A DNA stretch of 26,355 nt from a bacterium (GTDB lineage: Bacteria > SZUA-182 > DTGQ01). Below are positions 2,232-19,739 of this stretch, in pieces; within the stretch, counting starts at the first letter, position 1, and every line of letters starts with the position of its first letter. The DNA is taken from the NCBI GenBank assembly GCA_040752695.1, contig JBFMGO010000087.1:1-26355 (forward strand). Direction: 5' to 3'. The notes under the pieces were generated by a model. The model did not search any database and had not been told where the DNA came from. It saw only the letters and a program-made list of their open reading frames with translations. The position numbers and the translations under genes were made by a program.

Positions 2232-3179
2232 TCACTCCGCCGCAACTTCCGGCCTTGGCCACAGTCCGGCGTCCTTGACAATGGTGGGCACGATTTCTTC
2301 CCATTCCACAGCCATGATGTGCACGCCTTTGATGCCAGGGATCTCGCGCATCTTATGGATCATTTCGACGCAGATTTTCGCGCCCTCGGCCTTGGCGTCT
2401 TGAGCCCCCTCCATTCTGCGGATAAGGTCATCCGGGATGCTCATTCCGGCCACATTGTTCTTCATGTACTGGAGCACTTTCGATGATTTGACGGGCATTA
2501 CTCCGGCCAGGATAGAGACCTTTTCGTGCAGGCCCTGGTCGGTCACCATCTGCATGAAGGTCTTGAACTTGGGCAGGTCGAAGATGCACTGGGTCTGGAC
2601 GAAATCGGCTCCTGCCTTGATTTTTTTGGCCAGCCGCACCACCCGGAATTCGAACGGATCGCCAAAAGGGTTGGAGGCGACTCCCAGAAACATTCTCGGC
2701 TCTATGATATCCGATTTTTTCGTATTGCGGATCTCCTCGCCGCACTGAAAGACCTTTTCATCCCGCATGTTCTTGCACATCTGAACCAGTTGGATGGAAT
2801 CGAGATCATAGACGTTCTTGGACTGGGGATGATTGCCGAAGCTCTGATGATCCCCGCTTAAGCATAAAAGATTCCGCAAGCCCAAAACGTAGGCACCGAG
2901 AACATCGGCCTGCATGGCCAGGCGGTTTCTGTCCCGGCAGGTCATCTGGATAATTGGCTCAAGGCCCTCATCGAGGGCGATTTTCCCGGCTGCAATGCTC
3001 GATACCCTGACGATGGCGGTCTGGTTGTCCGTGATATTCACAGCATCGGCAAATCCGCGAAGGATCGAGGCCTTTTTCTTTATTAACTGGATATCCGCAC
3101 TCTTTGGTGGCCCCAGTTCAGCGGTAGCCACGAATTCCCCCTGATTCAATAATTTTTCAAGACGGCTACCTGCTTTCAT
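2232..3179 (-). CDS. metF: Methylenetetrahydrofolate reductase MetF (MetV-associated type), copy 1
   Basis: Motifs ELGPPK, NITDNQ, QMTCRDRNR, LSGD, GADFVQTQ and GVHIM. The ATG at 3179 overlaps the metV stop (ATGA); an alternative GTG start is at 3185. Confidence 0.92.
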   Translation of the reverse strand: MKAGSRLEKLLNQGEFVATAELGPPKSADIQLIKKKASILRGFADAVNITDNQTAIVRVSSIAAGKIALDEGLEPIIQMTCRDRNRLAMQADVLGAYVLGLRNLLCLSGDHQSFGNHPQSKNVYDLDSIQLVQMCKNMRDEKVFQCGEEIRNTKKSDIIEPRMFLGVASNPFGDPFEFRVVRLAKKIKAGADFVQTQCIFDLPKFKTFMQMVTDQGLHEKVSILAGVMPVKSSKVLQYMKNNVAGMSIPDDLIRRMEGAQDAKAEGAKICVEMIHKMREIPGIKGVHIMAVEWEEIVPTIVKDAGLWPRPEVAAE

Positions 3180-3844
3180 AGACACATATCCTCCCTGATT
3201 ACCTTTCGCGGTCCTCCGTCCCTGCTCGTAGACCAGTTTTTGACAGGCATAATCTCGGCGAGGCTCTCAAGTCTGTTCAGGGCTTTCAGGCGCTCGTAAA
3301 TCAAATGCCAGCCGCAGTCGATGTCTTTATTGATTTCACACTTGCCGTTTTGCGATCCTCCGCAGGGACCGTTCAAAAGGCTCTTCGAGCAGCGTGAGAT
3401 CGGGCAGACTCCGCCGGTTTTATCCAGAATGCATTGGCCGCAGGCCTGGCAGCGCTCGACCCAGACGCCTTGCTTTTCCGGCAGGCCCAGGAGTTTGGTA
3501 TTCAGGGCAGGTATGACCGGCAGTGAGGGGAATTGCTCGGCTATGGTCTGGACACCGATTCCGCAGCCTGTCGAGATGAGAAGGTCATGTCCTTTGACTG
3601 CACTTTTCAAAGCGTCCACAAACTCCTTCTCACACTGACGCTCGATACTGGTTTCGTGCACCTCGGCCTCTTTCCCCTGCACCTTTAAAGCCAGACGCAG
3701 ACCAGAGGCTAAAATGGCCACCTCCTTGGCTCCACCGGCAAGACAAACCGTAACGCAGGTATCGCAGCCGATCACCAGGATATTCTGGCAGCCTTCGATC
3801 ATTTTGACAATTTCCGTTATATCTTTCTGTTCAGCAACAATCAT
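3176..3844 (-). CDS. metV: MetV, Cys-rich (Zn/FeS) MTHFR partner subunit, copy 1
   Basis: Motifs GCDTCVTVCLAGG, RQCE, CGIGVQ and ERCQACGQC...CPISRCSKSLLNGPCGG...KCE...DCGW. It lies directly upstream of metF. Confidence 0.9.
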   Translation of the reverse strand: MIVAEQKDITEIVKMIEGCQNILVIGCDTCVTVCLAGGAKEVAILASGLRLALKVQGKEAEVHETSIERQCEKEFVDALKSAVKGHDLLISTGCGIGVQTIAEQFPSLPVIPALNTKLLGLPEKQGVWVERCQACGQCILDKTGGVCPISRCSKSLLNGPCGGSQNGKCEINKDIDCGWHLIYERLKALNRLESLAEIMPVKNWSTSRDGGPRKVIREDMCL

Positions 3845-3913
3845 CGTTTCACCTTATTTACTTCTCCACTCCCCCTTTTTTCGAGGGGAAGCGCGAGATT
3901 TTTGCCATCTAGT

Positions 3914-4327
3914 CTAAGGTTCCTTTTTTACTGGACTTGGCCCCAGGTTCCTGATACTTTCATTGCCCAGTCGAACCATCTCCACAAATGCAGTCCATTC
4001 CAGTTCGGACAGAAAAAAGAACCGCAGCCGCTCTTTCTCGATCCCGATCTTCTCCAAAAGGGTACTCGTATGATCGATTCTTTTTCCTGCCCGTACGTTC
4101 CCCAACAGAAACTTGCAGCTATCCGGGTGACAGGCAAAGACAAACACCCCGTCAGCACCCTCTTCAAAGGCCTTCAGAATATGGATTATCTCCAGCTTTC
4201 CCGAGCAGGGAAGCCGGCAGATCCTGATGTTGGAAGGGTATCCTTCCTGCTGTGCCCCCGCTATGTCCGCAGCCCGGTAAGCGGAATTTTCGCAACAAAA
4301 TGCCACAATGGCCGGCGTAAAGTCCAT
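3914..4327 (-). CDS. mvhD: MvhD/FlpD-type [2Fe-2S] subunit (methyl-viologen-reducing hydrogenase delta family)
   Basis: Motifs AFCCENSAYRAAD, RLPCSGK, AFEEGADGV, ACHPDSCKF..GN and IGIEKERL. It follows the hdrA-like genes. Confidence 0.92.
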   Translation of the reverse strand: MDFTPAIVAFCCENSAYRAADIAGAQQEGYPSNIRICRLPCSGKLEIIHILKAFEEGADGVFVFACHPDSCKFLLGNVRAGKRIDHTSTLLEKIGIEKERLRFFFLSELEWTAFVEMVRLGNESIRNLGPSPVKKEP

Positions 4328-4332
4328 TAATT

Positions 4333-6144
4333 TTACCTCTCAAGGGTTAGTTCGGAAAAAATCTGATTATCTGAATAATGCACCATTTCAATAGCCTTGG
4401 CCGGACATTCACCGGCACAGATCCCGCACCCCTGACATGCTTCAGGGATAACCTTCGCTCCCCACTTCTGCCCCAGTTCGACCTCTCCGATTTCTATGGC
4501 CTGATGCGGGCAGGAGCGGAAACAGGTCAGGCACAGGGCGCATTTATCGGTGTCGATGACTACCTTTTGCTCGGTCTCCAGGTATCCGCGGGACAAGGTG
4601 GAGTAAACAGCCATGGCTACCGAACGTACATCACCGAGAGCCTCGCAGGTTTCTTCCTTCCCGTGACAGGAGCCGGCCAGGAAGATTCCCTTCTTGTTCG
4701 AAAGATTTGGCTTTAAGTGGATGTTCGCTTCCTGATAGAAGCCGCCCTTGTTCAGATTGACTCTGAGGGCATTTTTCAGACACTCGGTATCTTCGCCGGG
4801 AAGGATTTCATCCTCGAAGACCAGAAGGTCCGCATGGATGATGACAGGACGGGCTGCCCCCTCACTTTCCTGGCTGCCACATACCCCGGCATTTCCCGAT
4901 GCCGCCTTGGCTGAAGGCCGATCCAGGGCAGGATCATGAATCCGGACCGTGATAACGCCCTTTTCGATGCTGACCGTGGGCCCGGAATCTTCCGTAGAGC
5001 GGAAAAACAAAATTCCCGCCTGCCTGGCCTTTTGGTAAAGCGTTTCAATCTGTGTTCCTGAGACGATGATGTCTCTGGCCGCGATCACGACTTCCGCCTT
5101 AAACTGCTTTTTCAGGGCAATCGCTTCATTCAGCGCCATAACGGTGGACCTTTTGGCAAAGCCCTCTGCTTCACCGAGGATAAAGCAGACATATTTGGTC
5201 CTTTTGTCCGCAGTAACGAGGATCTGCTCAAGCGCCCTTCGCTCCCGCGTGACCAGGTCACTCAGGCCTGAAAGGCTGACGATTCTGTGGGAAGGACGCA
5301 AAGCGGTCATCTTTTGGACCGCCCTTTTTTCAGGCTCCGTACTGACCACAATGCTGCCTATATCCAGAATCTTTTCCTGGCCCGCAGTCTCCAAGGTTAC
5401 CCGGAAGGCACCGGGGCCGCCTTTTACCTGCGTAACCTGGCTCGAGGTCAAAATCTCGATCTTTTTATCATCGAGCTCTTTGAGCTTTTGCGTAATCCAG
5501 CCAGAGGAAAACACCTCATCACTCCCTTGTGCACCCTGGGTACAGGGATTCATGAAAGATGCATCCTTCGGGCACACCTTTTCCTGCTTCTCGACGAGAA
5601 TGGGCCTTAAGCCCAGGCCGTGCAGCTCAATGGCCATCTGGATACCCGAAATCCCAGCTCCGATCACCAGAGCCGAAGATTCCACCTTTCTTCTCACCTT
5701 CTCCAGGGGCTTGGCCAAAGCCACCCGCTTTATGGCAGATGAGAGTATCTGCCTGGCCTTTGGCATGCAGCCCTCTTTGTCAGCACATGCCCAGGCGCAC
5801 CCTTCCCGGATATTGGCTATGGTCAAAAAGGAGCGGTTCAACCCCGCTTCTTCAAGCACGTTCATGAAACGCACTTCGTACTGATGGGGAGAGCATCCGG
5901 CAATAACGAACCGGTTGCAGCCGGAGCGGACGATTTTGCTCCTCAGCCATTCAAGGCCGCTCCTGGTGCATAAAAAGCGGTTTTCGTCTACAAAGGCCAC
6001 ACCCGGTACTTGAGCTGCATAATCCATCAGGGCCTTGACATCGAAATAATCATTCATCATATGCCCGCAGGTGCAGAAGAATACCCCGATCTTTACCGGA
6101 ATCCCGTTATTCCCGCCAGTGCAGGAATCCAGATGATTATCCAT
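4333..6144 (-). CDS. hdrA: HdrA-like flavoprotein/FeS protein with a degenerate central cluster region
   Basis: HdrA N-terminal motifs (GVFFCTCG, FLC, IAGCSP, ANIREGCAW), Rossmann ALVIGAGISG, GIFLAGSC and C-terminal 2x[4Fe-4S] (CALCLTCFRSCP, CQGCGICAGECP). The QCVGSR..CS..CC motif is absent. Confidence 0.8.
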   Translation of the reverse strand: MDNHLDSCTGGNNGIPVKIGVFFCTCGHMMNDYFDVKALMDYAAQVPGVAFVDENRFLCTRSGLEWLRSKIVRSGCNRFVIAGCSPHQYEVRFMNVLEEAGLNRSFLTIANIREGCAWACADKEGCMPKARQILSSAIKRVALAKPLEKVRRKVESSALVIGAGISGIQMAIELHGLGLRPILVEKQEKVCPKDASFMNPCTQGAQGSDEVFSSGWITQKLKELDDKKIEILTSSQVTQVKGGPGAFRVTLETAGQEKILDIGSIVVSTEPEKRAVQKMTALRPSHRIVSLSGLSDLVTRERRALEQILVTADKRTKYVCFILGEAEGFAKRSTVMALNEAIALKKQFKAEVVIAARDIIVSGTQIETLYQKARQAGILFFRSTEDSGPTVSIEKGVITVRIHDPALDRPSAKAASGNAGVCGSQESEGAARPVIIHADLLVFEDEILPGEDTECLKNALRVNLNKGGFYQEANIHLKPNLSNKKGIFLAGSCHGKEETCEALGDVRSVAMAVYSTLSRGYLETEQKVVIDTDKCALCLTCFRSCPHQAIEIGEVELGQKWGAKVIPEACQGCGICAGECPAKAIEMVHYSDNQIFSELTLER

Positions 6145-7462
6145 GACATACCTCCTCCAAGCCCTTTTTCTTCAGCCCCCTCAAGAAGGCAACTGCCCGG
6201 AGAGCCGCCTCCTGGCCATGCGAAACGGATTCGACCAGGCTCTTTGGCCCCTGGCACGTGCCTGCAAGAAAGATCCCCGGCCGAGAGCTGACCGTCGAAT
6301 CCAGTAGATTCAAAGGAGCAAAGAATCCATCCCTGCCGGTCCTGAGACATAGGGTTTCGGCTAAAATCTGATTTTGCACAGCAGGGCTGATTCCCACCGA
6401 CAGAACCACCAGGTCAAAATCAGCACTCTCCATGCACCCCTTATCGATATTCTCATACCGCATTGAAACACCGGCTCCATTTCCCGCCTTTTCGATTTCT
6501 ACGGGGAGCCCCTTGATTAAGCTGATTTTCCCCCTCACCTGCTCGACGAGTGATAAAAACTCGCTTTCCGTTTTCTGCAGGTCGATGTAAAAAATAGTCA
6601 CTTCAGCATCACTGATCTGAGATTTGAGTTTGGCGGCCATGCGCACCGCGTATTTACAGCAAACTCTCGAGCAGTAATCCTGACTTATGTGCGGATCGCG
6701 GGAGCCAACACACTGAATGAAAGCTATCCTGGGGGGCATGTGCTCTTTCCCCTCCCTGGTAAGCGGACCGAAAAAGGCGCTGGCCCTTCCTGCAAGCAGC
6801 CTTTGCTCCAGGTCAAGCCCTGTAATCACCTCAGGGAGTCGGCCATAGCCAAGATGCCCTTTCTTTCGTGCATCATAGGCTGTAAAGCCGGTAGCCACAA
6901 CAAGAGCCGAGGCATGCAGGATTGTCGTTTCCTCTTTCTGGTTCAGGAAGATGGCCCCTGCCGGGCAATTGTCCTCACACAGGGCACAGCCGGTCTCCTG
7001 CTGAAAGGCCAGACAGTGGTTCCGGTCAATGGAAAACACATTCGGGATGGAAGACAGATAGGGCCGGCTGATGGCGATTCCAGGCTTCGGGCAGCTCTGA
7101 TAGCACAGAGAGCAGGCAATGCATTTATCTTCATCGATGAACCGCGGCTGCTTTCGAACATCAACTTCGAAAGAGACGCCGCCGTCTTTCAGCCTCACCT
7201 CGCGCACTCCCACCACTTCGGAGTGGGTCAAAAGGTGAATGTTGGGCGAGGATGCGGCCCTGGTGACCTTATCTTTAGCCAGGCAGACGCCGCAACTGTT
7301 GCATTGCTCGGTAGCCTTGCAGCAGAAGCTCAAAGCGTGGCCGCCAATACTTGATTTCTTTTCGACAACATACACTTCGTAGCCATTATCAGCCAGGGAG
7401 AGGGCAGAACTTACCCCGGCAATCCCGCCGCCGATAACAATGGCTTTGTCCTGATCGTTCAA
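6137..7462 (-). CDS. hdrA: HdrA-like FAD core protein lacking the N- and C-terminal HdrA FeS domains
   Basis: Rossmann VIGGGIAG, inserted ferredoxin (CIACSLCYQSCP; C...GCALCEDNCP), VATGF, IQCVGSRD...YCSRVCC, DLVVLSVG and GIFLAGTCQGPK. TTG start after an AAGGAGG RBS. Confidence 0.85.
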   Translation of the reverse strand: MNDQDKAIVIGGGIAGVSSALSLADNGYEVYVVEKKSSIGGHALSFCCKATEQCNSCGVCLAKDKVTRAASSPNIHLLTHSEVVGVREVRLKDGGVSFEVDVRKQPRFIDEDKCIACSLCYQSCPKPGIAISRPYLSSIPNVFSIDRNHCLAFQQETGCALCEDNCPAGAIFLNQKEETTILHASALVVATGFTAYDARKKGHLGYGRLPEVITGLDLEQRLLAGRASAFFGPLTREGKEHMPPRIAFIQCVGSRDPHISQDYCSRVCCKYAVRMAAKLKSQISDAEVTIFYIDLQKTESEFLSLVEQVRGKISLIKGLPVEIEKAGNGAGVSMRYENIDKGCMESADFDLVVLSVGISPAVQNQILAETLCLRTGRDGFFAPLNLLDSTVSSRPGIFLAGTCQGPKSLVESVSHGQEAALRAVAFLRGLKKKGLEEVCHG

Positions 7463-7517
7463 GGTCTGAAACCTCCTTTACGAGAAGCTGTCGGCATGTA
7501 ACATTTTCGTGAAAAGA

Positions 7518-7651
7518 AGAATTCAAAGAGTCAAGAGCAAAACTATCTTACATCCCCCCCTGCCCCCTTCAAAAAGGAGTGCTTTCCTTACTGCCGGCTT
7601 TTATCCTGACCTCTGTCTATACTCATTCAGACTCCTGACTCTTTGAATTCT
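7518..7651. repeat. Intergenic inverted repeat with a perfect 16-bp arm, plus degenerate heptamer repeats
   Basis: AGAATTCAAAGAGTCA (7518-7533) is the exact reverse complement of TGACTCTTTGAATTCT (7636-7651). CTGACTC-like units continue to 7680. Confidence 0.75.
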
Positions 7652-7680
7652 GACTCCTGTTCTTTGATTCTGACTTCTGA

Positions 7681-8604
7681 TCAATGAATTTCTGTCTCCT
7701 GGTTCGTCAGTCCCGCTCCATCCAGGATAGCCGGGATTTTCCCCTCAAGACCTATGGCCATGATGTGCACACCCGCGCACATACCCTGCACCTTTTGTAT
7801 CTGACGGCTGGCTATCCGGATTCCAGCTTCCAGGGGATCGGCCGAAGATTCCAATTCTTTGATCAAATGATCCGGCACCGTTACACCGGGGACATTCTGA
7901 TTGAGATACCGGGCCATGCCCGCAGACCGCAAAAGAAGAATCCCTGCCAGGATTGTGGCGCTAAGGTCATTGGCATATTTCATAAATCGTTCAAATTTCG
8001 TAAGGTCATAGATAGCCTGGGTCTGAAAAAATCTGGCTCCAGCGGCAACCTTTTTAGAAAACCGTACAAGGTGCGGCTCTAATGGGGAGGCTTCCGGATT
8101 CACCATGGCTCCGGGAAAAAGGTCGGTACTTCCCTCCAGGGCCGTGCCATTGGGCAGGGGCTTGTTCGCCATGGACCTGGTAGAAAAGTCACGCCCCTCG
8201 TTCAGGCGTCCGATGACCTGCAAAAGCTGTGTGGAATCAAGATCGAATACGGGCTTAGCCTGCGGATGGTCGCCCACTTTCGTGTGATCGCCGGTCAGAA
8301 CCAGGACATTTCTGATACCCAGCACGCTGGCACTGAGCAAGTCGGATTGCAGAGCGAGGCGGTTTCGGTCACGGCAGGTTATCTGATAGATAGGATCAAA
8401 GCCCTCCTCTTTGAGCAGATGGCAGGCAGCCAGGGAGCCGAGTCTCATAACCGAGCTCTGATTATCGGTCACATTGATTCCATGCACTCTCCCTTTCAGC
8501 TTATCTGCATGGGCCAGCATTTTTGAGACGTCGGTACCCTTCGGAGGGGCGATTTCGGCTGTAATGGTAAACTGTTTTTTTTCCAAGGCTTGCTGAAAGC
8601 CCAT
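7681..8604 (-). CDS. metF: Methylenetetrahydrofolate reductase MetF, copy 2
   Basis: Motifs EIAPPKG, NVTDNQ, QITCRDRNR, LTGD, FDLDS, FFQTQ and GVHIM. Confidence 0.92.
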   Translation of the reverse strand: MGFQQALEKKQFTITAEIAPPKGTDVSKMLAHADKLKGRVHGINVTDNQSSVMRLGSLAACHLLKEEGFDPIYQITCRDRNRLALQSDLLSASVLGIRNVLVLTGDHTKVGDHPQAKPVFDLDSTQLLQVIGRLNEGRDFSTRSMANKPLPNGTALEGSTDLFPGAMVNPEASPLEPHLVRFSKKVAAGARFFQTQAIYDLTKFERFMKYANDLSATILAGILLLRSAGMARYLNQNVPGVTVPDHLIKELESSADPLEAGIRIASRQIQKVQGMCAGVHIMAIGLEGKIPAILDGAGLTNQETEIH

Positions 8605-8636
8605 CCCAACCTCACTTACTTCTTATTCACTCTCTC

Positions 8637-9290
8637 TCACTTCTTCTTATTCACTGTCAAAACCCGAGGTTTGATGTTTTTGGAATAATCCTTGGGAGCA
8701 AAGACTTCCTTTATCGCCTCTACCTTTCCTAACTCTTTCAAACGCTCATAAATCTTGACCCAGGCACAGTCCCTGTCAGGATCAACCTCGCATTTGCCGT
8801 CACTCATGCCGCCACAGGGGCCATTCAAAAGCCCCTTGGAGCAGGTTGTCACCGGGCAGATCCCAGCCGTTTTGTCCAGGATGCACTCTCCACATAAAGA
8901 ACAGCGCTCCTCGAATTGCCCGAATCGCTTCACCGTGCCCAGAAAAAGGCTGTCCAGTGCAGGTACAGCCGGTACCTCCTGAAGTTCTGAAATCGTCTGG
9001 ACACCGGCACCACAGGCCATGACCACTACAGCTTCGGCTTCGGCCAGTTCGGCCTTTTTAAGCCGCAGCTCTTTTTTGCTGCTCAGAACATGGCAGGCAG
9101 ATTCAAGTACGCAATAACCCACAACCTCCCTGCCCTCTCCCGCAAGGAGTTGCTTCATCTCCAGAACCTGCTCTTCTCCCCCGCTCTGACAGGTGGCAGC
9201 GCACAGGCTGCAACCGATCAAGAAAACCTTTCTCTTCCCCTGAAGACTGCTCAGAATTTCATCGAAGGGTTTTTGCCGGGTGATGATCAT
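8637..9290 (-). CDS. metV: MetV, Cys-rich MTHFR partner subunit, copy 2
   Basis: Motifs GCSLCAATCQSGG, CGAGVQ and ERCSLCGEC...CPVTTCSKGLLNGPCGG...KCE...DCAW. Confidence 0.9.
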   Translation of the reverse strand: MIITRQKPFDEILSSLQGKRKVFLIGCSLCAATCQSGGEEQVLEMKQLLAGEGREVVGYCVLESACHVLSSKKELRLKKAELAEAEAVVVMACGAGVQTISELQEVPAVPALDSLFLGTVKRFGQFEERCSLCGECILDKTAGICPVTTCSKGLLNGPCGGMSDGKCEVDPDRDCAWVKIYERLKELGKVEAIKEVFAPKDYSKNIKPRVLTVNKKK

Positions 9291-9291
9291 A

Positions 9292-9669
9292 TCAGTTGTA
9301 CTCTTCTTGCAGGTACTGCTGGTATTCCTCCTCGTCGAGCAGGTTATTCAGTTCCCCGGGATTTTCCAGGAGCACCTTGATAATCCATCCTCTTTCGTAA
9401 GGATCCTCATTGACCAACTCCGGCTCGTCATCGAGGGCTTCGTTTACCTCGGTAACGGTGCCGCTTACCGGAGAGATCAGGTCAGTTACCGCTTTGGAGG
9501 ATTCAATCTGGCCAAAAGAGCTTGACTGCCGCACCTTTTTACCAGTAGTTTCAACCAGTAAAACGTCACCCAACTCCTCCTGAGCATGATCGGTGATTCC
9601 AACTATTCCCTTATTCCCCTCCACTCTGACCCACAAGTGCTCTTTATTGAAGTATAATTTTCCAGCCAT
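9292..9669 (-). CDS. gcvH: Glycine cleavage system H protein (lipoyl carrier)
   Basis: Motifs EHLWV, VGITDHAQEELGD, IESSKAV (lipoyl Lys), PVSG and PELVNEDPY..GWI. The ATG at 9669 follows an AAGGAG RBS (the ORF track starts at 9687). Confidence 0.93.
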   Translation of the reverse strand: MAGKLYFNKEHLWVRVEGNKGIVGITDHAQEELGDVLLVETTGKKVRQSSSFGQIESSKAVTDLISPVSGTVTEVNEALDDEPELVNEDPYERGWIIKVLLENPGELNNLLDEEEYQQYLQEEYN

Positions 9670-9723
9670 GATCAATCTCTCCTTCATTTTCCCTCATGAG
9701 AAGACGGCAAAAAGCATTCAAAA

Positions 9724-9797
9724 AGCCTGCCCGAAAAAATCCTTAGAAAGACACTTCATCACCATGAGTGCCTTAAAACCCGCTTTTCGGACAGGTT
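9724..9797. repeat. 74-bp element with 14-bp imperfect terminal inverted repeats (MITE-like or an mRNA stem)
   Basis: AGCCTGCCCGAAAA (9724-9737) and TTTTCGGACAGGTT (9784-9797) are 12/14 complementary. Confidence 0.55.
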
Positions 9798-10645
9798 CAG
9801 GAGAAAATCTCCGCAGATTTAACGGTATTCGCCATAAGCATGGTAATGGTCATGGGACCTACGCCGCCAGGCACGGGAGTGATCGCTGCAACTTTGTCTT
9901 TCATCCCTTCAAAGTCCACATCCCCGACAAGCTTTCCATCTGCAAGGCGGTTTACTCCGACATCAATTACCACAGCCCCTTCCTTGACCATATCGGCCGT
10001 GATCATCTTCGGTTTGCCAATGGCGGCGATAAGGATATCGGCCCTCTTAGTCTCATCAGCCAGGGATTTTGTTCTTGAGTGGCAAATGGTTACCGTGGCA
10101 TGCTCATGCAACAGCAGGCTGGCCACTGGTTTTCCGACAATATTGCTTCGGCCTACCACCACGACATTTTTCCCTTTGATGTCGATCTTACTGGCGTGCA
10201 GAAGTTCGACCACTCCGGCCGGTGTGCAGGGGGGAAAAAGGGCTTTTCCCAGGACGAGATTGCCAATATTCACCGGATGAAAGCCATCTACATCCTTGGT
10301 GGGGACAATCGCCTCAATGACCATTTCCTCGTTGAAATGGCCGGGCAGAGGGAGCTGAACTAAAATTCCGTTGATTTTCTCATCCTGATTCAGCCGGTTG
10401 ATAAGGGCCAATACCTCGTCCTGACTGGTATTGGCAGGCAGGGCGTATTTCTCGGAATGAATGCCAAGGCTCTCGCAGGCCTTCTCCTTCATGCGGACAT
10501 AGACCTTTGAGGCAGGATTTTCCCCTACCAGAATAACTGCCAGTCCGGGAGTTTTCCCTTTTTCCTTGAGAGTTTCAATCCTGCTTTTCAGCTTTTCCCG
10601 CAACTCATTGCCGATTTTCGTCCCGTCGATAATCATGCCACTCAT
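9797..10645 (-). CDS. folD: Bifunctional methylene-THF dehydrogenase / methenyl-THF cyclohydrolase
   Basis: Motifs PGLAVILVG, YVRMK, GILVQLPLP, KDVDGFHP, PCTPAG, GRSNIVGKP and TPVPGGVGPMT. Confidence 0.97.
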   Translation of the reverse strand: MSGMIIDGTKIGNELREKLKSRIETLKEKGKTPGLAVILVGENPASKVYVRMKEKACESLGIHSEKYALPANTSQDEVLALINRLNQDEKINGILVQLPLPGHFNEEMVIEAIVPTKDVDGFHPVNIGNLVLGKALFPPCTPAGVVELLHASKIDIKGKNVVVVGRSNIVGKPVASLLLHEHATVTICHSRTKSLADETKRADILIAAIGKPKMITADMVKEGAVVIDVGVNRLADGKLVGDVDFEGMKDKVAAITPVPGGVGPMTITMLMANTVKSAEIFS

Positions 10646-10777
10646 TCACGACCCTCCTTAATTTCCTTTTATCTTCCTCAATCCTTGAGGCATCAAGGTC
10701 TGTTCTTCCTGTATTGAAAACCTTCCTCCCTTGTTTCTCATGTTCTCTTCATTCAAGAAAACCTTACCGCAGAACCC

Positions 10778-11335
10778 TCAGCGGTTCTGAATGAGTTCCA
10801 GCATCTCCGCCCTTGTTTTCGGATTGGTTCGAAAGGCACCCCGTACAGCCGAAGTAATCACTTTGGCATGAGGTTTTTTCACCCCCCGCATGGACATGCA
10901 CAGGTGTTCGGCCTGGATCACCACCATGGCGCCTATCGGTTTCAATCCATCCATAACGATATTCACCAGTTCCTTGGTCAGCCGTTCCTGAAGCTGGGGC
11001 CTCTTGGCCAGTACATCGAGAATCTGGGCCAGTTTGCTGATTCCTATGATCTCCCCGCGGTTGGGCAGATAGGCGATGTGGGCATCTCCAAAGAAGGGAA
11101 GCAGATGGTGCTCACAGATTGAATAAAAGGGGAGATCTTTCACCAGCACCATCTCGTCATATTCCTCTCCCTTAATGGGAGTCATGATCTTTCGCGGGTC
11201 CCGCTCCAATCCGGCAAAAATTTCCTGGTACATCTCGGCTATGCGGACCGGCGTTCTCTCCACTCCCGGCCAGTCGGCTATGCCGATGCCTTCAAGGACC
11301 AGCCTGACCCCTGCCTCTATTTTTTGTGTATCCAT
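10778..11335 (-). CDS. folE: GTP cyclohydrolase I (type IA)
   Basis: Motifs [31 protein letters not shown] and HLCMSMRGV. Confidence 0.96.
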
Positions 11336-11509
11336 TTTTCCTTATTTTCTTGACTGCTGTTGCCTTGCATACACCACGCATGAAATACGCGGCCAGTTAG
11401 GTGTTCCGCTCAGGTGCCATGGAGTCCTTGTTTGCACCCTCCCTAATCTGCTGTTTCCTTCCCCGAAATCCTCATATGAGCCGCTTGTTAGAGGCTTTTG
11501 AGAGGCCGG

Positions 11510-12295
11510 TTACTGCCGGGCAGCCAGCCTGGCATCCAGGAATTTTTTGATTTTCTCGATCCCGGCAACTGTTTCCCGGCAGGAGGAAAAGGGGGATTCC
11601 CCCTTTGAATCAGCCTCGACCAGTTCCCAGGAGAATGGCAAAAAGCCGATGATTTCAAAATCGGGCAACTGGCTCTGAATAAACTCTTTATCCTCAGGAT
11701 TTCGCACCTTGTTGGCGACGAGAAAACTTTCCGAAATCCCCAGATCCAGAGCCAACTGACGGATATCCCGGGCGGTCTGAAGGCTCCTTTTACCCGGCTC
11801 TACGACAATCAAAAAGGCATTGACCGCTCTGGCCGTTCCTCTGCCCAGATGCTCGATTCCGGCCTCCATGTCCAGAATCAGCATTTCCCCCTTCTTCAAT
11901 AGAAGATGAGTCACCAGGGTCTTGAGAAAGACGCCTTCAGGGCAATAACATCCGCTGCCGCCGGGCTTGGGTTTGCCAAGTGACAGAAGGCGGATGTTTT
12001 CAAACTGGATCCCGAACCGGTCAGCCACATCATCCACAGAAGGGTTCATCCTGAAAAATCCTCCTGCTCCTCCCGGCCTGGCACCCGTACGCTCTTCAAT
12101 CAGGGAGGATAAGGAACAAAGAGGCTGAATCTTCAGGATTTCCGATTCCGGAAAGCCAATAGCCGATGCCAGATTTGCATCCGGATCAGCATCGACGGCC
12201 AGGACCTTTTGTCCCGTTTGAGAATAGAGTCTTGCCAGGACGGCAGATACCGTAGTTTTTCCCACTCCTCCTTTACCAGTAACAGCAATTTTCAC
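11510..12295 (-). CDS. cooC: CooC/AcsF-family nickel-insertion ATPase (CODH/ACS maturation)
   Basis: Deviant Walker A GKGGVGKTT, DADPDANL, GCYCPE (CxC Ni site) and DMEAGIEHLGRG. GTG start after AGGAG. Confidence 0.92.
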   Translation of the reverse strand: MKIAVTGKGGVGKTTVSAVLARLYSQTGQKVLAVDADPDANLASAIGFPESEILKIQPLCSLSSLIEERTGARPGGAGGFFRMNPSVDDVADRFGIQFENIRLLSLGKPKPGGSGCYCPEGVFLKTLVTHLLLKKGEMLILDMEAGIEHLGRGTARAVNAFLIVVEPGKRSLQTARDIRQLALDLGISESFLVANKVRNPEDKEFIQSQLPDFEIIGFLPFSWELVEADSKGESPFSSCRETVAGIEKIKKFLDARLAARQ

Positions 12296-13742: not shown

Positions 13743-14276
13743 CTATCTGGTTTCTCGAAAGGTACGCTGGTTGTGGCATTCTGTGCAGTCGGTGCCGTTT
13801 TCGCCCTCATGAACATCCCGATGGCAATGAATGCATTGATTTTTATCGAGCAGATAGCTGCCCTTCTTATGGCAGGCTTCGCATTTTAAAAGATCATGGC
13901 TGCCCTCTATCGGCCATCCGGTTAAGGCGTGATCAAAGGTTTTCGGATCTATATGCGCGATACGATATGACCTTCCATGATGTTCTGAATGGCAGTGTTC
14001 GCATTCCCAGGAAACCCTGGAATGGAAACCGGTTTTGGCTTGAATCATCGTTTTGATTTCCTGGTGGCAATCCAGACATTTCCTGGTATCCAGCCGTTTG
14101 CCTCTCGTATGGCAGGCCGCACAATCACCGTTTGCATCAAGTTCTTCATGCGCCGAGGAGAGCGGGCCGGGGGAAAACAGTTGAGACCATTTGAGGTGAC
14201 ATCCCGCATACAGGAACACCGAAACGCACGCTATTACGAAAATAAGGAAAAGAGTCCTTCTCGTCAGAAGATCCAT
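13743..14276 (-). CDS. Exported or membrane-anchored hexaheme c-type cytochrome
   Basis: Six CxxCH motifs (CAACH, CLDCH, CEHCH, CEACH, CIHCH, CTECH), an N-terminal basic plus hydrophobic segment, an SPGPLSSAH motif and many spare His for bis-His ligation. Confidence 0.92.
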   Translation of the reverse strand: MDLLTRRTLFLIFVIACVSVFLYAGCHLKWSQLFSPGPLSSAHEELDANGDCAACHTRGKRLDTRKCLDCHQEIKTMIQAKTGFHSRVSWECEHCHSEHHGRSYRIAHIDPKTFDHALTGWPIEGSHDLLKCEACHKKGSYLLDKNQCIHCHRDVHEGENGTDCTECHNQRTFRETR

Positions 14277-15142
14277 CGATACCCCCAGTATGAGGTAACC
14301 AGAACATGGGCCAGGGTAATGAAAAAAAGCAGGTAACTGGAAACCTTATGAATAATCTCCCATTTGTTCAATACGCAAAGACATACATCCAGAACGGCGA
14401 TGGAGCGGATATCTCTCAGCCTCTTGATAAGCTGGTCTGCCCACTTGTGCAACTCACCCTGTTGATCATCGTCATATTTTTCGTTTATGAGATCGAGCAA
14501 AGACCCGGTTTCTTTTTTGATCGACCGCCACTGGCGGATTGTTTCGACGAGTCCTGAACTGCACGGGAATCCAGGCGGTTTCAGGTCCATTATTCTTTCG
14601 ATGACCGGGGAAATCCGGCTGGCGTTTCTTAAATCCCTCTCTATGAGAAGGTCGATTTCATGCAGGGGCTCATAGATAGAGGAAATGCCCCAAAAGCAGT
14701 ACCCGGCGAGAAACCTTCCGAACACTCCTGAAATCACCACGACAATCATGAGCCAGAACGCCACCCCGACTATCCCCTTAAGGGCAAAAGCGGAATGGAA
14801 CACAATAAGGACGGGGCCCAGAATACCAAAGAAAACATGGATCTCCAGCCAGAGGGAAAGAGGGCCTAAAAACTCAAAACACTCGACCCTTTTCCTCAAG
14901 ACATAGAGAGTGTAGGAAAGAAGCATGAAAATGGTTCCCACAACGCCCAGTGCATGACCTACGGTTCCCGAAGGTTTAAATCGAAGGTGCAGCGCAGTGT
15001 TAAGATACCTGACCTGCTCAGGGATGAAAATATACGGCTTGTAGAGGAAGGAGAGATACCCTGCCGTAAGGATAACGAGAATAAGCCACAAAAGACGAAA
15101 AATCCACTGCCTGTCCCGATAACGAACTCTATTCTCTGCCAT
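14264..15142 (-). CDS. Polytopic membrane protein, probable di-heme b (ferric-reductase-like) transmembrane electron conduit
   Basis: About 5-6 hydrophobic helices and two H-x13-H helices (HVFFGILGPVLIVFH; HKVSSYLLFFITLAH). The ATG at 15142 lies just after the upstream stop; the 15343 extension in the ORF track overlaps the upstream gene. Confidence 0.75.
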   Translation of the reverse strand: MAENRVRYRDRQWIFRLLWLILVILTAGYLSFLYKPYIFIPEQVRYLNTALHLRFKPSGTVGHALGVVGTIFMLLSYTLYVLRKRVECFEFLGPLSLWLEIHVFFGILGPVLIVFHSAFALKGIVGVAFWLMIVVVISGVFGRFLAGYCFWGISSIYEPLHEIDLLIERDLRNASRISPVIERIMDLKPPGFPCSSGLVETIRQWRSIKKETGSLLDLINEKYDDDQQGELHKWADQLIKRLRDIRSIAVLDVCLCVLNKWEIIHKVSSYLLFFITLAHVLVTSYWGYRWIF

Positions 15143-15150
15143 TGTTTCCC

Positions 15151-16419
15151 TTACCTTCGGTCCCTGGGAGCTTTTCCTTCGTCCCCATGGTGAGCACCGT
15201 GAGCATGATGGGCATGGTGATCCCCGCTTTCGGCCCCTTCGAGTGAGTACTTTAAGAGCTCCCTCAACTCGACATTGATCGACCCCTTGTTCTTCGAGAT
15301 AAAGTCTTCGATAGTCATGATCTTGAGAGCCCCTGTGGGACAATTATGAACGCAGGCCCTGTTTGAATAGCCTGCACAGCCATCACATTTTACCGCTACC
15401 TTGAACTGGCGTTTTTTCCTGATATTCCGGTCTATGTAATCGAGGGTGATAGCGCCTGTCGGACATATCTTGGCGCATTCGCCGCATCCCGTACATGCCT
15501 GGGTAAGCTCAAGGAACGGAGTGCCGATCCGTCTGTTGATGCCGCGCTGTACAAATCCTATGGCGCTTGCCCCGATATTCTGCTCGCAGACACGAACGCA
15601 GAGCCCGCACAGAATGCAGGCATCCGGGTCATTCCTGAGCATAAAGCGGCTCTTGGCCACTCCCGCATCCTTGGCCATGTTCTCGATTACGTCAGAACCC
15701 GGACATCTGGCCATGAGCAGTTCAAAAATCATCCTGCGGGTTTTTATCACCCTTTCCGTATCAGTCGTTACGATGATGCCTTCCTGCACGGGATACATGC
15801 AAGAAGGGTAGAGGCGGGTTATCTTCCCTGCGCTCACCTCAACCAGGCAGATACGGCAGGCGCCCAGAGAACTCACCGCCGGATGATAGCAAAGGGTGGG
15901 GATATGGATGCCATATCTATTGGCAACGTCCAACACCGTCTCCTCCCGCATACCCATTACCGCCTGCTCATTGATGGTGAATTGGACCAGGTCCTCCCTC
16001 GGCCTGTATTCCAGGATAACCCGCGAAAGAAAGACCGATTCCTGTCTGAGCCGGTCCAGAACCACCAGAGGAAGCCGGTCGATGTAGTCCTCCGTTTTGA
16101 TTATGCAGTGCGTAGCGCCCAGCCTCAGCGCGTCAGCAGCCATCATCTCATTTCTGTGACCGATCAGAACTATCACGGGCTTTTTGTAGTGCCCCCGTAT
16201 CTTCTGTAAAACCTCAAGGCCATTTTTCCGGGTAAGCTCGAGGTCAAGGATGATGAGGTCATACTGTATCGCCTTCTCAAGATATGAAAAGCACTCCTCA
16301 GCACTCGCAGCAGGCTCTATGATCATGGACCCGGGTAGACCATGCAGCTTTTCCTTGATCAATCTGGCATGAGTAGGATCATCTTCAAGCAGAAGGATAG
16401 TATTTATGGCGTTTTCCAT
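15151..16419 (-). CDS. Fusion of a response-regulator receiver domain, a NuoG/HydA-type N-terminal FeS module ([2Fe-2S] + 2x[4Fe-4S]), an orphan [4Fe-4S] Cys group and a His-rich tail
   Basis: Receiver: LLLEDD...LIILD59...GA..IIK108. FeS: IPTLCYH...GACRIC...SC, CILCGLCVRVC and CTGCGECAKICP. Extra group KCDGCAGYSNRACVHNCP. Tail HHAHHAHGAHH. There is no H-cluster or molybdopterin domain. Confidence 0.85.
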   Translation of the reverse strand: MENAINTILLLEDDPTHARLIKEKLHGLPGSMIIEPAASAEECFSYLEKAIQYDLIILDLELTRKNGLEVLQKIRGHYKKPVIVLIGHRNEMMAADALRLGATHCIIKTEDYIDRLPLVVLDRLRQESVFLSRVILEYRPREDLVQFTINEQAVMGMREETVLDVANRYGIHIPTLCYHPAVSSLGACRICLVEVSAGKITRLYPSCMYPVQEGIIVTTDTERVIKTRRMIFELLMARCPGSDVIENMAKDAGVAKSRFMLRNDPDACILCGLCVRVCEQNIGASAIGFVQRGINRRIGTPFLELTQACTGCGECAKICPTGAITLDYIDRNIRKKRQFKVAVKCDGCAGYSNRACVHNCPTGALKIMTIEDFISKNKGSINVELRELLKYSLEGAESGDHHAHHAHGAHHGDEGKAPRDRR

Positions 16420-16526: not shown

Positions 16527-18374
16527 CTACTGCACCCAGACGGCCTGTACAGGGCATGCCTTAAAGCAGATCCCGCACTTTATGCATTTTGTCTGATCAA
16601 TGCTGTGGGGTCTTTTTTTCTCACCGCTGACTGCGGACTGCGGGCACTGCCGGGCACATTTCGTACACCCGATGCATTTTGTCTCGTCGATCCCGTACCT
16701 GATCAAAGCCCTGCATACCCTGGCAGGACAGCGCTTGTCCTGGATATGGGCCAGATATTCATCCTCGAAATGTCTTATCGTGGATAAGACGGGATTGGGG
16801 GCCGTCTGCCCCAGGGCACACAACGAAGCATCTTTTATAACCGCCGACATCTCCTTCAGAAGATCGAGGTCACTCAACGCTCCCGTGCCCTTGGTGATTC
16901 CCGTTACGATGTTGAGCATCTGGCTGATTCCTTCCCTGCAGGGGACGCATTTGCCGCACGACTCGCCCTGTAAAAAGTTCAGGAAATAGCGGGCAACCTC
17001 GACCATGCAGGTATCCTCGTCCATAACGATCATCCCGCCTGACCCCATCATGGAGCCAGCCTTGGTGAGTTGGTCAAAATCAATGGGTAAGTCAAGCATA
17101 TGGTCCGGCATGCAGCCCCCGGATGGCCCGCCGGTCTGCACGGCTTTAAATTTTTTCTTATTGGGAACCCCTCCGCCGATGGTAAATACGATTTCCCGCA
17201 AAGAGGTGCCCATGGGGACCTCCACCAGACCCGTATTATTAATCTTGCCCACTAGGGAAAAAACCTTGGTGCCCTTGCTTCCCTCGGTGCCAAAAGAGGC
17301 AAACCAGTCGGCTCCCCGGTCGAGAATAATCGGGATATTGGCAAAGGTTTCCACGTTATTGATCAGGGTCGGTTTCCCCCATAACCCCTTTTGGGCTGGA
17401 AAGGGTGGTTTGGGTTTCGGTGTGCCTTCACGGCCCTCAAGGGACATGATCAGGGCGGTCTCTTCACCGCATACAAAGGCGCCGCTCCCCTTGCTGATAT
17501 GAATATCAAAGCGAAATCCTGAGCCAAGAATATTCTCGCCGAGCAGATTATACTGCCGGCAGCTTTGAATAGCTGTATCGAGGTTCTTGACAGCCAGAGG
17601 GTATTCTGCCCTTACATATACATAGCCTTCCGAGCTCCCTATGGCTCTGGCCGCGACCGCCATCCCCTCGACTACTGCGAAAGGATTTCCTTCAATGATG
17701 CTTCTATCCATATAGGCACCAGGATCACCCTCATCAGCGTTGCATACTACATATTTTTGGTCCGCCTGACTCTCTGCCGTGAGTTTCCACTTGAGCCCCG
17801 TGGGAAATCCTCCGCCTCCTCTGCCCCGAAGGCCGGATTTCATGATCTCGCCGATGATGTCCTCGGGTTTCAGGTGAAACAATGCCCTGGACAGGGCTGA
17901 AAAGCCGCTGAAGGCAATATAGTCATCGATCGAAACAGGATCAATAAAGCCGTTGTTTTTTAATACGATTCTCTTCTGACCTTTGTAAAAGGGAATATCC
18001 CTTTCAAAAACAATTTTGTTTCCGCTGAGAGGATCCGTATACAAGAGCTTTTCAATTACCTTGTTCCTTTGAATGGTCTGCTCGATGATATCTTTGGCAT
18101 CTTCGGGAGAAATCCTGTGATAAAATATCCCCTGTGGCCGAATTACGGCCAGAGGCCCCATTTCACAAAAGCCGTGGCACCCCGATATGAGCAGCCTGAC
18201 AGACTCGGTCATCCCTCTTTGGGCCAGTTCATCCTTGAAGGCGGTAATGACCTTTTCACAACTGTATGCGCGACAGCCCGTTCCCCCGCAGATAATAATA
18301 CAGGGCTTGTTAAAATCTGCCTTCTGGTTAACCGACTTTCTGTACTCTTCCAAATCGATCGCTGACTTCAGCAC
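16527..18374 (-). CDS. NuoF/HydB-type NAD(H)/FMN-binding subunit, long (bifurcating-type) form
   Basis: N-terminal CGGTGC...GCHGFC [2Fe-2S], GLRGRGGGGFPTG, NADEGDPGAYMDR, GAFVCGEETAL, GGPSGGC, ESCGKCVPCREG...SLCALG, H...CPARVC and two C-terminal [4Fe-4S]. The start is probably GTG 18374 after GAGG (the ORF track gives TTG 18422). Confidence 0.93.
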   Translation of the reverse strand: MLKSAIDLEEYRKSVNQKADFNKPCIIICGGTGCRAYSCEKVITAFKDELAQRGMTESVRLLISGCHGFCEMGPLAVIRPQGIFYHRISPEDAKDIIEQTIQRNKVIEKLLYTDPLSGNKIVFERDIPFYKGQKRIVLKNNGFIDPVSIDDYIAFSGFSALSRALFHLKPEDIIGEIMKSGLRGRGGGGFPTGLKWKLTAESQADQKYVVCNADEGDPGAYMDRSIIEGNPFAVVEGMAVAARAIGSSEGYVYVRAEYPLAVKNLDTAIQSCRQYNLLGENILGSGFRFDIHISKGSGAFVCGEETALIMSLEGREGTPKPKPPFPAQKGLWGKPTLINNVETFANIPIILDRGADWFASFGTEGSKGTKVFSLVGKINNTGLVEVPMGTSLREIVFTIGGGVPNKKKFKAVQTGGPSGGCMPDHMLDLPIDFDQLTKAGSMMGSGGMIVMDEDTCMVEVARYFLNFLQGESCGKCVPCREGISQMLNIVTGITKGTGALSDLDLLKEMSAVIKDASLCALGQTAPNPVLSTIRHFEDEYLAHIQDKRCPARVCRALIRYGIDETKCIGCTKCARQCPQSAVSGEKKRPHSIDQTKCIKCGICFKACPVQAVWVQ

Positions 18375-18453: not shown

Positions 18454-19326
18454 TCAAGTGTTCTCATCAAACATCTTGAGTATTGAGCTGATCTTCTCAG
18501 GTGTTACCTTACCGAAATACTCTCCGTCAATAACCATGACCGGCCCGAGAGCACACGCGCCCAGACAGTTAACACTCTCCAGGGTAAATTTCATATCCTC
18601 TGTCGTTTCACCTGCCTTGATCCCCAAGATCCGCTCAAGTTCATCGAGAATCTTGGCCGCGCCTCTCACATGGCAGGCTGTACCCATGCATACGTGAATA
18701 ATGTGACGCCCCCTGGGAATAAGGCTGAAGGCGTTATAAAAGGTCGCCACATTGTAAACCCGGCTGAGCGGAACACCCATTTTACCGGCAACAGCTATCA
18801 GGGCCTCCCTGGGAAGGTACTTATATTCGATCTGGATCTCCTGCAAAACGGTCATTAAAGAGCTCGGAACCCTGGGAAACCGATCGATTATTTCGTCTAT
18901 CTTCCTGACATCCAAAAGCCCGTCGTTTGTATTTTCCACTTCGGCCTTCTGCGGCATTACGAACGAGATTATTTTATCCAGAAGTGTTGTTTCCTGCTCC
19001 TGCTTTGAAAACAGAAGAATAGCGCTGTATGGGCAGGCTCTCATACATAAGCCGCATCCTACACAATTTTCCGTGACAACAATATGCCCTTCCTCATCTT
19101 TTTCAACCCCATGGCGGTTGCAGGTCTCAATACATTTAGGGTTTCTACATATCTTACAGAGGTTAGGGATGAGGCTGATGCCAATAATGGCCGAGCGATC
19201 TCTGACGTGCCTGGAAACATCCTTATGCCTTCTCTTACAGGCTGCGATGCAATTACCGCAGTTAAGGCACTGTTTAATGTCACTTACTACTATCGTTTGA
19301 GAATCTGCCATATAAGAGTCTGCCAT
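18454..19326 (-). CDS. Fusion of three DmsB/HydN-type [4Fe-4S] Cys groups with a NuoE/HydC [2Fe-2S] subunit
   Basis: N-terminus: CLNCGNCIAAC, CKICRNPKCIETC and CVGCGLCMRACP. C-terminus: NuoE motifs VATFYNAF, VCMGTACHVRGA and VNCLGACALGP. Confidence 0.88.
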   Translation of the reverse strand: MADSYMADSQTIVVSDIKQCLNCGNCIAACKRRHKDVSRHVRDRSAIIGISLIPNLCKICRNPKCIETCNRHGVEKDEEGHIVVTENCVGCGLCMRACPYSAILLFSKQEQETTLLDKIISFVMPQKAEVENTNDGLLDVRKIDEIIDRFPRVPSSLMTVLQEIQIEYKYLPREALIAVAGKMGVPLSRVYNVATFYNAFSLIPRGRHIIHVCMGTACHVRGAAKILDELERILGIKAGETTEDMKFTLESVNCLGACALGPVMVIDGEYFGKVTPEKISSILKMFDENT

Positions 19327-19709: not shown

Positions 19710-19739
19710 AGTATACTCATTTCTCTCACAGCGTGTCAA
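19710..19739 (-). promoter_or_regulatory. Sigma70-type promoter for the NuoEFG-like/cytochrome operon
   Basis: Minus strand TTGACA-18 nt-TATACT, implying a leader of about 380 nt. Confidence 0.55.

Follow-up and report, generated by a model that had tools for sequence, protein, structure and literature searches.

A degenerate receiver domain fused to the A subunit of a Bfu-type electron-transfer module: a candidate docking module on a predicted transmembrane electron conduit

Introduction

Why should a response-regulator receiver domain share one polypeptide with an iron-sulfur electron-transfer subunit? The question is raised by a gene in a 26,355-nt contig of an uncultured bacterium (hereafter, the window means this whole stretch of DNA). 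A sequence-only reading of the window had proposed that phosphorylation of the receiver gates electron flow or assembly of the complex or, alternatively, that an atypical receiver is used as a docking module. Two open questions meet in this one protein, the post-translational control of bifurcating enzymes and the roles of bacterial pseudo-receivers, the latter posed in the cited part of PMC12632262.

Results

The fusion is real and restricted to one bacterial order

The fusion gene and its parts lie on the minus strand as follows.

15151-16419 (-): receiver/BfuA fusion gene, a single open frame of 422 aa
16425..16430 (-): AGAGGT, a Shine-Dalgarno-like site 5 nt upstream of M1 (sequence)
16036..16419 (-): pseudo-receiver domain, aa 1-128 (Pfam, alignment counts, model)
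15991..16035 (-): linker, aa 129-143, predicted flexible (pLDDT <50 at 128-140; variable in the alignment)
15700..15990 (-): BfuA A1 [2Fe-2S] domain with C177, C188, C191 and C207 (Fer2_4; invariant Cys)
15430..15636 (-): BfuA A2/A4 2x[4Fe-4S] domain with C268/271/274/278 and C309/312/315/319 (sequence, alignment, PDB match)
15235..15402 (-): fourth Cys motif, C345, C348, C356 and C360, and C-terminal helix (invariant in 30/30 rows)
15151..15234 (-): His-rich tail and stop codon (alignment)

The CheY-like receiver runs without interruption into the [2Fe-2S] domain, as the sequence-only reading had described. Within the 422-aa frame, Pfam places Response_reg at aa 8-111 (E 6e-16, 59 bits against a cut-off of 30.2), followed by Fer2_4 at aa 144-221 and then by the 4Fe-4S motifs. 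The receiver part of the AlphaFold model has the (beta-alpha)5 fold, with pLDDT mostly 76-90, and Foldseek matches it to the PmrA receiver (TM 0.90 by target); the single-chain model as a whole has a pTM of 0.39, with an undefined domain arrangement and a poorly modelled 4Fe-4S half. Compared with the four closest homologues, the His-rich tail has some 15 additional aa, which may bind metal or may have been inserted neutrally.

Two trivial explanations of the fusion were rejected. Translation from an internal codon was discarded because the ribosome site ahead of M1 has no comparable counterpart at other ATG, GTG or TTG codons within the first 170 codons, and because the 12 fused homologous loci compared also have purine-rich sites ahead of their starts. 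A sequencing artefact was discarded because the fusion recurs full length in 28 proteins and in 10/12 genomes of the same order, and because the residue substitutions of its receiver are family-wide. The sequence-only reading had suggested a search for REC + Fer2_4 + Fer4 architectures as a check. The 28 proteins come from a protein search with residues 1-330: of the best 120 of 1164 matches, 28 (query included, 49-78% identity) combine PF00072 with the Fe-S domains and cover 96% or more of this stretch, and PF00072 is absent from ranks 31-120. Two proteins without the receiver, P0020 and P0030, were excluded from every receiver count; the former, of 275 aa and 83% identical, begins in the linker, possibly as an effect of gene calling, a split or a frameshift. 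When the receiver alone was used as query, just 5 fused proteins were recovered among 30 matches, so this word-indexed search undercounts.

In a phylum sample of 20 genomes, a contig end cuts the copy of an eleventh genome of the order, and the remaining one (G001, 96% complete) lacks the fusion, as do seven other genomes of the class in whole-genome searches. Among the listed matches of the best 120 of 7842 NuoE homologues, none is a REC fusion. At least 80 loci of receiver-less relatives exist; in none of the 80 listed is there a membrane or cytochrome gene like those described below, and none of their 67 NuoE-like ORFs carries a receiver. The receiver/BfuA fusion is thus a real protein form, restricted to one uncultured bacterial order.

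The host is a Bfu-type module next to a membrane protein and a cytochrome

The fusion gene is flanked by four further genes of a putative cassette.

18454..19326 (-): BfuC/NuoE-type subunit with an N-terminal three-motif ferredoxin piece (Pfam, alignment)
16527..18374 (-): BfuB/HydB (FMN/NADH subunit), 615 aa, likely GTG start inferred from homologue lengths
14264..15142 (-): inner-membrane protein of PCC3-IMP type, predicted to bind two b haems, its start 8 nt beyond the end of the fusion gene
13743..14276 (-): hexahaem cytochrome c, 6 CxxCH, with an N-terminal hydrophobic segment, overlapping the membrane gene

The best PDB match of BfuB is 7t2r_B, the HydB of a bifurcating NiFe hydrogenase (E 6e-253). 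BfuB keeps the Cys of B1, B3, B4 and B5, and its B2 site (C456/T494/H543/C549/C554) aligns with C438, C476, H525, C531 and C536 of 7t2r_B; according to the part of PMC9304861 cited, around two-thirds of BfuB proteins have Thr at the position of T494, as here. In BfuC, PF01257 is matched at E 7e-53, the C1 ligands C213, C218, C254 and C258 are all invariant, and the N-terminal piece holds 12 invariant Cys in three motifs (aa 20-98). The Fe-S part of the fusion protein finds WorA (9mqx_A) as its best PDB match (E 5e-44); it has A1, A2 and A4, and lacks the His-ligated A3 motif and A5. A BfuA with A1, A2 and A4 but neither A3 nor A5, together with extra subunits, is given as the mark of Type 2 Bfu enzymes in the classification section of PMC9304861. 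By sequence, the fusion protein is assigned as BfuA of a HydABC-like BfuABC module of Type 2 that has no catalytic subunit. HoxU of bidirectional NiFe hydrogenases was rejected as its identity (NF005745, 133.9 bits against a cut-off of 333), and no hydrogenase family was found among the window proteins scanned.

Ferredoxins of the HycB/CooF/DmsB type hold four Cys motifs in one chain, whereas here three are on BfuC and the fourth is on BfuA. As natural proteins of three other loci (L121, L140 and L141) join all four motifs, and the joined form of L121 aligns to residues 5-175 of HycB3 (7qv7_A, E 7.8e-21), we infer that the N-terminus of BfuC and the C-terminus of BfuA likely make up a HycB-type 4x[4Fe-4S] ferredoxin split over two genes. 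WorS sits after cluster A4, the same position proposed here for the split ferredoxin (PMC12318220, in the part cited). In these joined-form loci (L140:8541-10552, L141:7854-9417 and L121:3263-4582) the intact HycB-type ferredoxin is fused to, or lies beside, the membrane protein, with no Bfu module nearby. A further variant, L030:7343-11971, lacks bfuB: it combines the receiver fusion, the membrane protein and the cytochrome with a three-motif Fe-S protein that stands alone and with a 380-aa hybrid of Fe-S, partial NuoE, dicluster and fourth-motif parts.

The membrane protein has five hydrophobic segments and the motifs W98x3H102x13H116, S138GxxG142 and W261x3H265x13H279, in which H102 and H116 are kept in 111/111 homologues, H265 in 100/111 and H279 in 101/111. 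It has no Pfam or NCBIfam match and belongs to a large family of 2548 representatives. Its model (pLDDT 91) gave no Foldseek match at E 0.001, and a VIA fold comparison with cytochrome b561 gave Z 7.6, a value within helical-bundle noise. For PCC3/PCC4 inner-membrane proteins, motifs of this kind are described with a proposed role in binding two b haems (PMC5566968, He et al. 2017, part cited).

In each of the 11 relatives' loci where the two occur, the fusion gene directly precedes the membrane gene, with bfuB and bfuC shifting position around this pair. In G013, a genome of the same class (85% complete), bfuC, bfuB, bfuA and the membrane gene are present with a BfuA that has no receiver, so the receiver is not needed to build the complex. 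Further downstream, the window holds a Wood-Ljungdahl methyl-branch cluster (2232-12295, minus strand: cooC, folE, folD, gcvH, metV-metF, two hdrA-like genes, mvhD and a second metV-metF), possibly including an Hdr-Mvh-coupled methylene-THF reductase. These genes keep the same order in L119 and adjoin the cassette only there and in the window; as they are absent from the 11 relatives' loci (0/11), they were rejected as part of the cassette. The window also encodes a phospholipase D-like protein (266-1423, minus strand), possibly a defence nuclease, whose DISARM DrmC/DpdK matches are far below cut-off. A near-consensus sigma-70 site (11/12) lies about 380 nt upstream of bfuC (19710-19739, minus strand); promoter and terminator counts in the window are at chance level. 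The source genome encodes acetyl-CoA synthase, NiFe hydrogenases and 49 ORFs with at least three CxxCH; no DsrA match over cut-off was found in it.

The signal path is degenerate while the pocket rim is conserved

The usual signal path of a receiver runs from the phospho-Asp through Thr and Tyr/Phe to alpha4-beta5-alpha5. The residues reported for this domain by the sequence-only reading, E12-D13-D14, D59, I86, C105 and K108, were all confirmed, and alignment with LuxO places I86 opposite Thr and C105 opposite Phe. Over the 28 homologues, the acidic pocket is kept (E12 28/28, D13 26/28, D14 28/28), and so is K108 (28/28). Conservation of D59 and K108 had been suggested as a check of phosphorylation; it held for K108 but failed for position 59, which is Asn in 13, Asp in 9, Ser in 4, Thr in 1 and Glu in 1. 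Position 86 holds a hydrophobic residue (Ile, Leu, Val, Phe or Met) and in no case Thr or Ser (0/28), and position 105 is Cys in 21, Tyr in 5, Phe in 1 and Ser in 1, so that Tyr/Phe is kept in 6/28. Codons 86 and 105 of the fusion gene are each one base away from Thr and Tyr, respectively, and the residue at T+1, G87, is small. By comparison, 63 of the 74 fully aligned other receivers of the source genome keep Asp, Thr/Ser and Lys together.

Measured against the five active-site residues of canonical receivers (PMC12632262), the domain has the DD pair, the Asp and the Lys but has I86 in place of Thr/Ser. Pseudo-receivers, in the part of that review cited, lack at least one of the five and are regulated via protein or ligand contacts. 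With a receiver fold supported by Pfam, the model and Foldseek, and Thr/Ser missing, the fused domain is a pseudo-receiver by that definition. It is not an aspartate-less receiver, as D59 is present; 19/28 orthologues are. Asp59 is retained in the fusion protein and its four closest relatives, but in a tree of the Fe-S part only it appears at four places among Asn, Ser, Thr and Glu rows; on that tree its distribution requires at least four changes, and a single Asp clade is rejected (p-AU 0.002). Because of this scatter, and as Asn is one base away, the Asp of the fusion protein is most simply read as regained.

The fused receiver is under purifying selection. In the six unsaturated pairs of 120, dN relative to the dS of the whole gene is 0.11-0.24 for the receiver and 0.03-0.20 for the Fe-S part, and the receiver evolves at 1 to 9 times the rate of the Fe-S part. 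By region, pairwise identity averages 0.95 (beta1-alpha1 loop), 0.74 (beta5-alpha5 loop) and 0.31 (beta4-alpha4 loop and alpha4, the usual output face of receivers). Fused receivers diverge down to 37% REC identity among the 28 proteins; P15, H17, S31, Y53 and K108 are invariant in them, and D/E61, T109 and E110 are near-invariant. H17 is found in 28/28, T109 and E110 in 27/28 each and D61 in 25/28 (D/E61 in 28/28), as compared with 3/77, 1/75, 1/75 and 2/78, respectively, in the other receivers of the genome. Many of the conserved positions are nevertheless core residues common to all receivers, and C43 is common to canonical paralogues. Moreover, HxxL and KTEDY motifs occur in canonical REC-PAS paralogues too, so part of the conserved patch was inherited and may serve the fold.

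The receiver probably descends from a REC-PAS-type receiver, with no constant kinase at the locus

The closest receiver in the source genome (E 2e-28) belongs to a REC-PAS protein (C41:3704-4603) that keeps DD, D, T and K; two genes upstream of it lies a kinase gene. The fused receivers group in a single clade (support 99), and six REC-PAS proteins of relatives form its sister group (support 83), while the REC-PAS of the source genome itself falls outside this pair, in an unresolved fork. The REC-PAS gene lies directly behind the cytochrome gene of the cassette in 5/5 genomes of genus g5, but away from the cassette in the source genome and in G008. A canonical REC-PAS-type receiver would have given rise to the domain in the ancestor of the order, or the domain would be older, with a loss in one sister lineage; the tree with outgroups is compatible with a receiver-less form that is ancestral as well as with one that arose by loss. 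Membrane protein, rnfC-like and rnfD-like genes, followed by a kinase, a receiver and REC-PAS, are found in the source genome (C41:3704-9652) and in L033:79-5822, with no other rnf genes seen in between.

The window was described as free of histidine kinases, and scanning 22 of its proteins likewise gave none, but HisKA is matched 87 times over cut-off in the genome. A kinase lies within about 5 kb in 3/11 relatives' loci holding the fusion and membrane genes, in three architectures. As no single kind is conserved across the 11 loci, a cognate kinase of the cassette was rejected.

Discussion

What, then, could the receiver do? We put at roughly one in two the probability that it is a phosphorylation-independent docking module on a predicted transmembrane electron conduit. 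On its predicted flexible linker, the pseudo-receiver would bind a partner through the face around the former active site, clamping onto another subunit either as an assembly aid or to tune motions of the Bfu core. In that conduit, BfuBC would couple NADH and ferredoxin (predicted bifurcation), and electrons would pass through A1-A2-A4 to the split HycB-type 4x[4Fe-4S] unit, the two b haems and the hexahaem cytochrome; both the NADH/ferredoxin coupling and the binding of two b haems are inferred from sequence. Outward flow, to the large multihaem network of the cell, seems likelier than inward flow. A decayed signal path combined with a fixed pocket rim would suit a binding surface, and the decay of the phosphorylation machinery makes docking likelier than a phosphorylation switch. 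Docking is further favoured because the fusion gene constantly precedes the membrane gene and no one kind of kinase accompanies the cassette. Of the two proposals of the sequence-only reading, the atypical receiver as docking module thus fits the loss of Thr in 28/28, the conserved rim and the purifying selection, while phosphorylation gating is poorly supported, with Thr/Ser in 0/28 and Asp59 in 9/28 at four places of the tree. Docking is weakened by the receiver-less BfuA of G013 and perhaps that of P0020, by the HxxL/KTEDY motifs of REC-PAS proteins, by the faster evolution of the receiver relative to the Fe-S part and by the Asp59 kept in this protein and its four closest relatives.

A direct phospho-switch, operated by an orphan kinase or acetyl-phosphate at least in the Asp59 lineages, would make use of D59, the DD pair, K108 and the small G87, and the 87 kinase matches offer potential partners; loss or substitution of Thr does not always abolish phosphorylation, as stated in PMC12632262 (part cited). 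We nevertheless consider it improbable, with the Asp missing in 19/28 orthologues, Thr/Ser in all 28 and Tyr/Phe kept in only 6, and with the Asp arising at four separate places, one base from Asn. Also improbable is a ligand, metal or redox sensor, in which the preserved acidic pocket with H17, D61 and K108 would modulate electron flow by binding a small molecule or a cation: the presence of E12, D14, H17, D/E61 and K108 in 28/28 each, and of D13 in 26/28, would agree with it, and the CikA and KaiA pseudo-receivers bind quinones (PMC12632262, part cited), but C105 is found in 21/28 only and C43 is shared with canonical paralogues.

The face formed by alpha1 and beta5-alpha5 is the usual kinase-docking face of receivers, and the conserved surface of the fused domain coincides with it. 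This would be expected if control were indirect, the pseudo-receiver pairing with the REC-PAS-coiled coil paralogue or a histidine kinase so that the phosphorylation of the partner gates the conduit, or the state of the conduit is reported to the kinase. The intact REC-PAS with its nearby kinase, the sister grouping and the gene adjacency in genus g5 all point in this direction, and pseudo-receiver/receiver heterodimers such as WhiI-BldM are known (PMC12632262, part cited). The adjacency is, however, found in a single genus, the genomes of which do not count as independent cases, the sister support is weak and the REC-PAS of the source genome stays outside the pair, and we regard indirect control as rather unlikely. 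Slightly less likely still is its more specific form, in which the tethered pseudo-receiver would capture a phosphorylated paralogue or kinase and thereby decide on the export of NADH/ferredoxin electrons to the multihaem network. The receiver might finally be a passenger, a former true switch kept only since a misfolded N-terminal domain would harm the subunit, as the receiver-less G013 cassette, the faster evolution of the receiver and its many general core positions would allow. This we find doubtful, given that the receiver is kept in all 28 proteins despite its divergence, though its deletion is evidently viable, and that pocket-rim residues rare in other receivers are invariant. The G013 cassette also argues against a structural role. 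The family offers natural controls in its Asp, Asn, Ser, Thr and Glu orthologues, the receiver-less cassette, and the intact and split forms of the ferredoxin.

Comparison with known systems

Fusions of receivers to redox subunits recur, but BfuA as host and this cassette appear undescribed in the literature searched, although two reviews of response-regulator output domains or the rest of the Bfu supplements could list the architecture. In Table S6 of PMC4395418, on aspartate-less receivers, Fer4 occurs in three architectures, each of the HdrA type, and Fer2 or 2Fe-2S in none; a missing active-site residue is the likeness, and the host the difference. Of the same type as these three rows is a 1166-aa HdrA-like polyferredoxin flavoprotein in a Desulfobacterales record (L106:13656-17156); the canonical receiver inside it (aa 212-322) has retained DD, D, T and K, unlike the receiver on BfuA. 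REC-NuoE clusters in the Atlas (51, 102 and 60 members, commonest in Nitrospirota; rows score 0.84 and are leads only) likewise place a receiver on an Fe-S electron-transfer subunit, on a different host. For accessory hydrogenases, the cited part of PMC11406978 only mentions PAS and kinase domains.

The enzymatic part most resembles WorABCSL of Acetomicrobium mobile (9mqx), which shares the BfuBC core, a BfuA with A1, A2 and A4 and no A3, and a 4x[4Fe-4S] HycB/CooF/WorS-type unit after A4 (PMC9304861 and PMC12318220, parts cited). It differs in that the present cassette has no catalytic subunit, splits the ferredoxin between BfuC and BfuA, carries a receiver on BfuA, and has a predicted membrane haem protein and a cytochrome c as outlet. 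The membrane protein resembles those of PCC3 and PCC4 in its size (about 300 aa), five helices, two WX3HX13H, SGXXG and position beside a multihaem cytochrome c, the named PCC3 proteins being compared by description only; PCC3 expression is covered in bioRxiv 2025.02.27.639646 (part cited). In contrast to these systems, neither a porin nor an extracellular multihaem cytochrome was found in the cassette of the window or in those of the relatives, and a Bfu module is the partner on the cytoplasmic side. In more distant loci, a 4Fe-4S/FAD-NAD(P) oxidoreductase takes this place rather than Bfu; four loci with distant relatives of the membrane protein (L125, L132, L144 and L145) show this neighbour, three of the four with 20-25-haem cytochromes, and P0233 joins oxidoreductase and membrane domain in one protein. 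The membrane-bound types in the cited part of the Bfu classification (PMC9304861) are Mbh-Bfu and Nuo-Bfu only; the cassette would add a type with a membrane haem wire as the third partner, and would give a PCC3-type membrane protein a defined cytoplasmic donor.

For the receiver itself, the one solved precedent that we found for docking on a redox complex would be MSMEG_2064 (Rv3143), an orphan response regulator built into mycobacterial complex I as a subunit, its Asp63 buried against NuoB (PMC10068793 and PMC9274095, parts cited). The analogy is that a receiver fold sits on a membrane redox complex linked to NADH, that neither receiver has a known cognate kinase, and that the Asp face serves in docking there, as it would here. 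MSMEG_2064, however, is a separate protein that keeps its Asp and sits on NuoB of complex I, whereas the receiver described here is fused, degenerate and carried by a Bfu module without the Nuo membrane arm.
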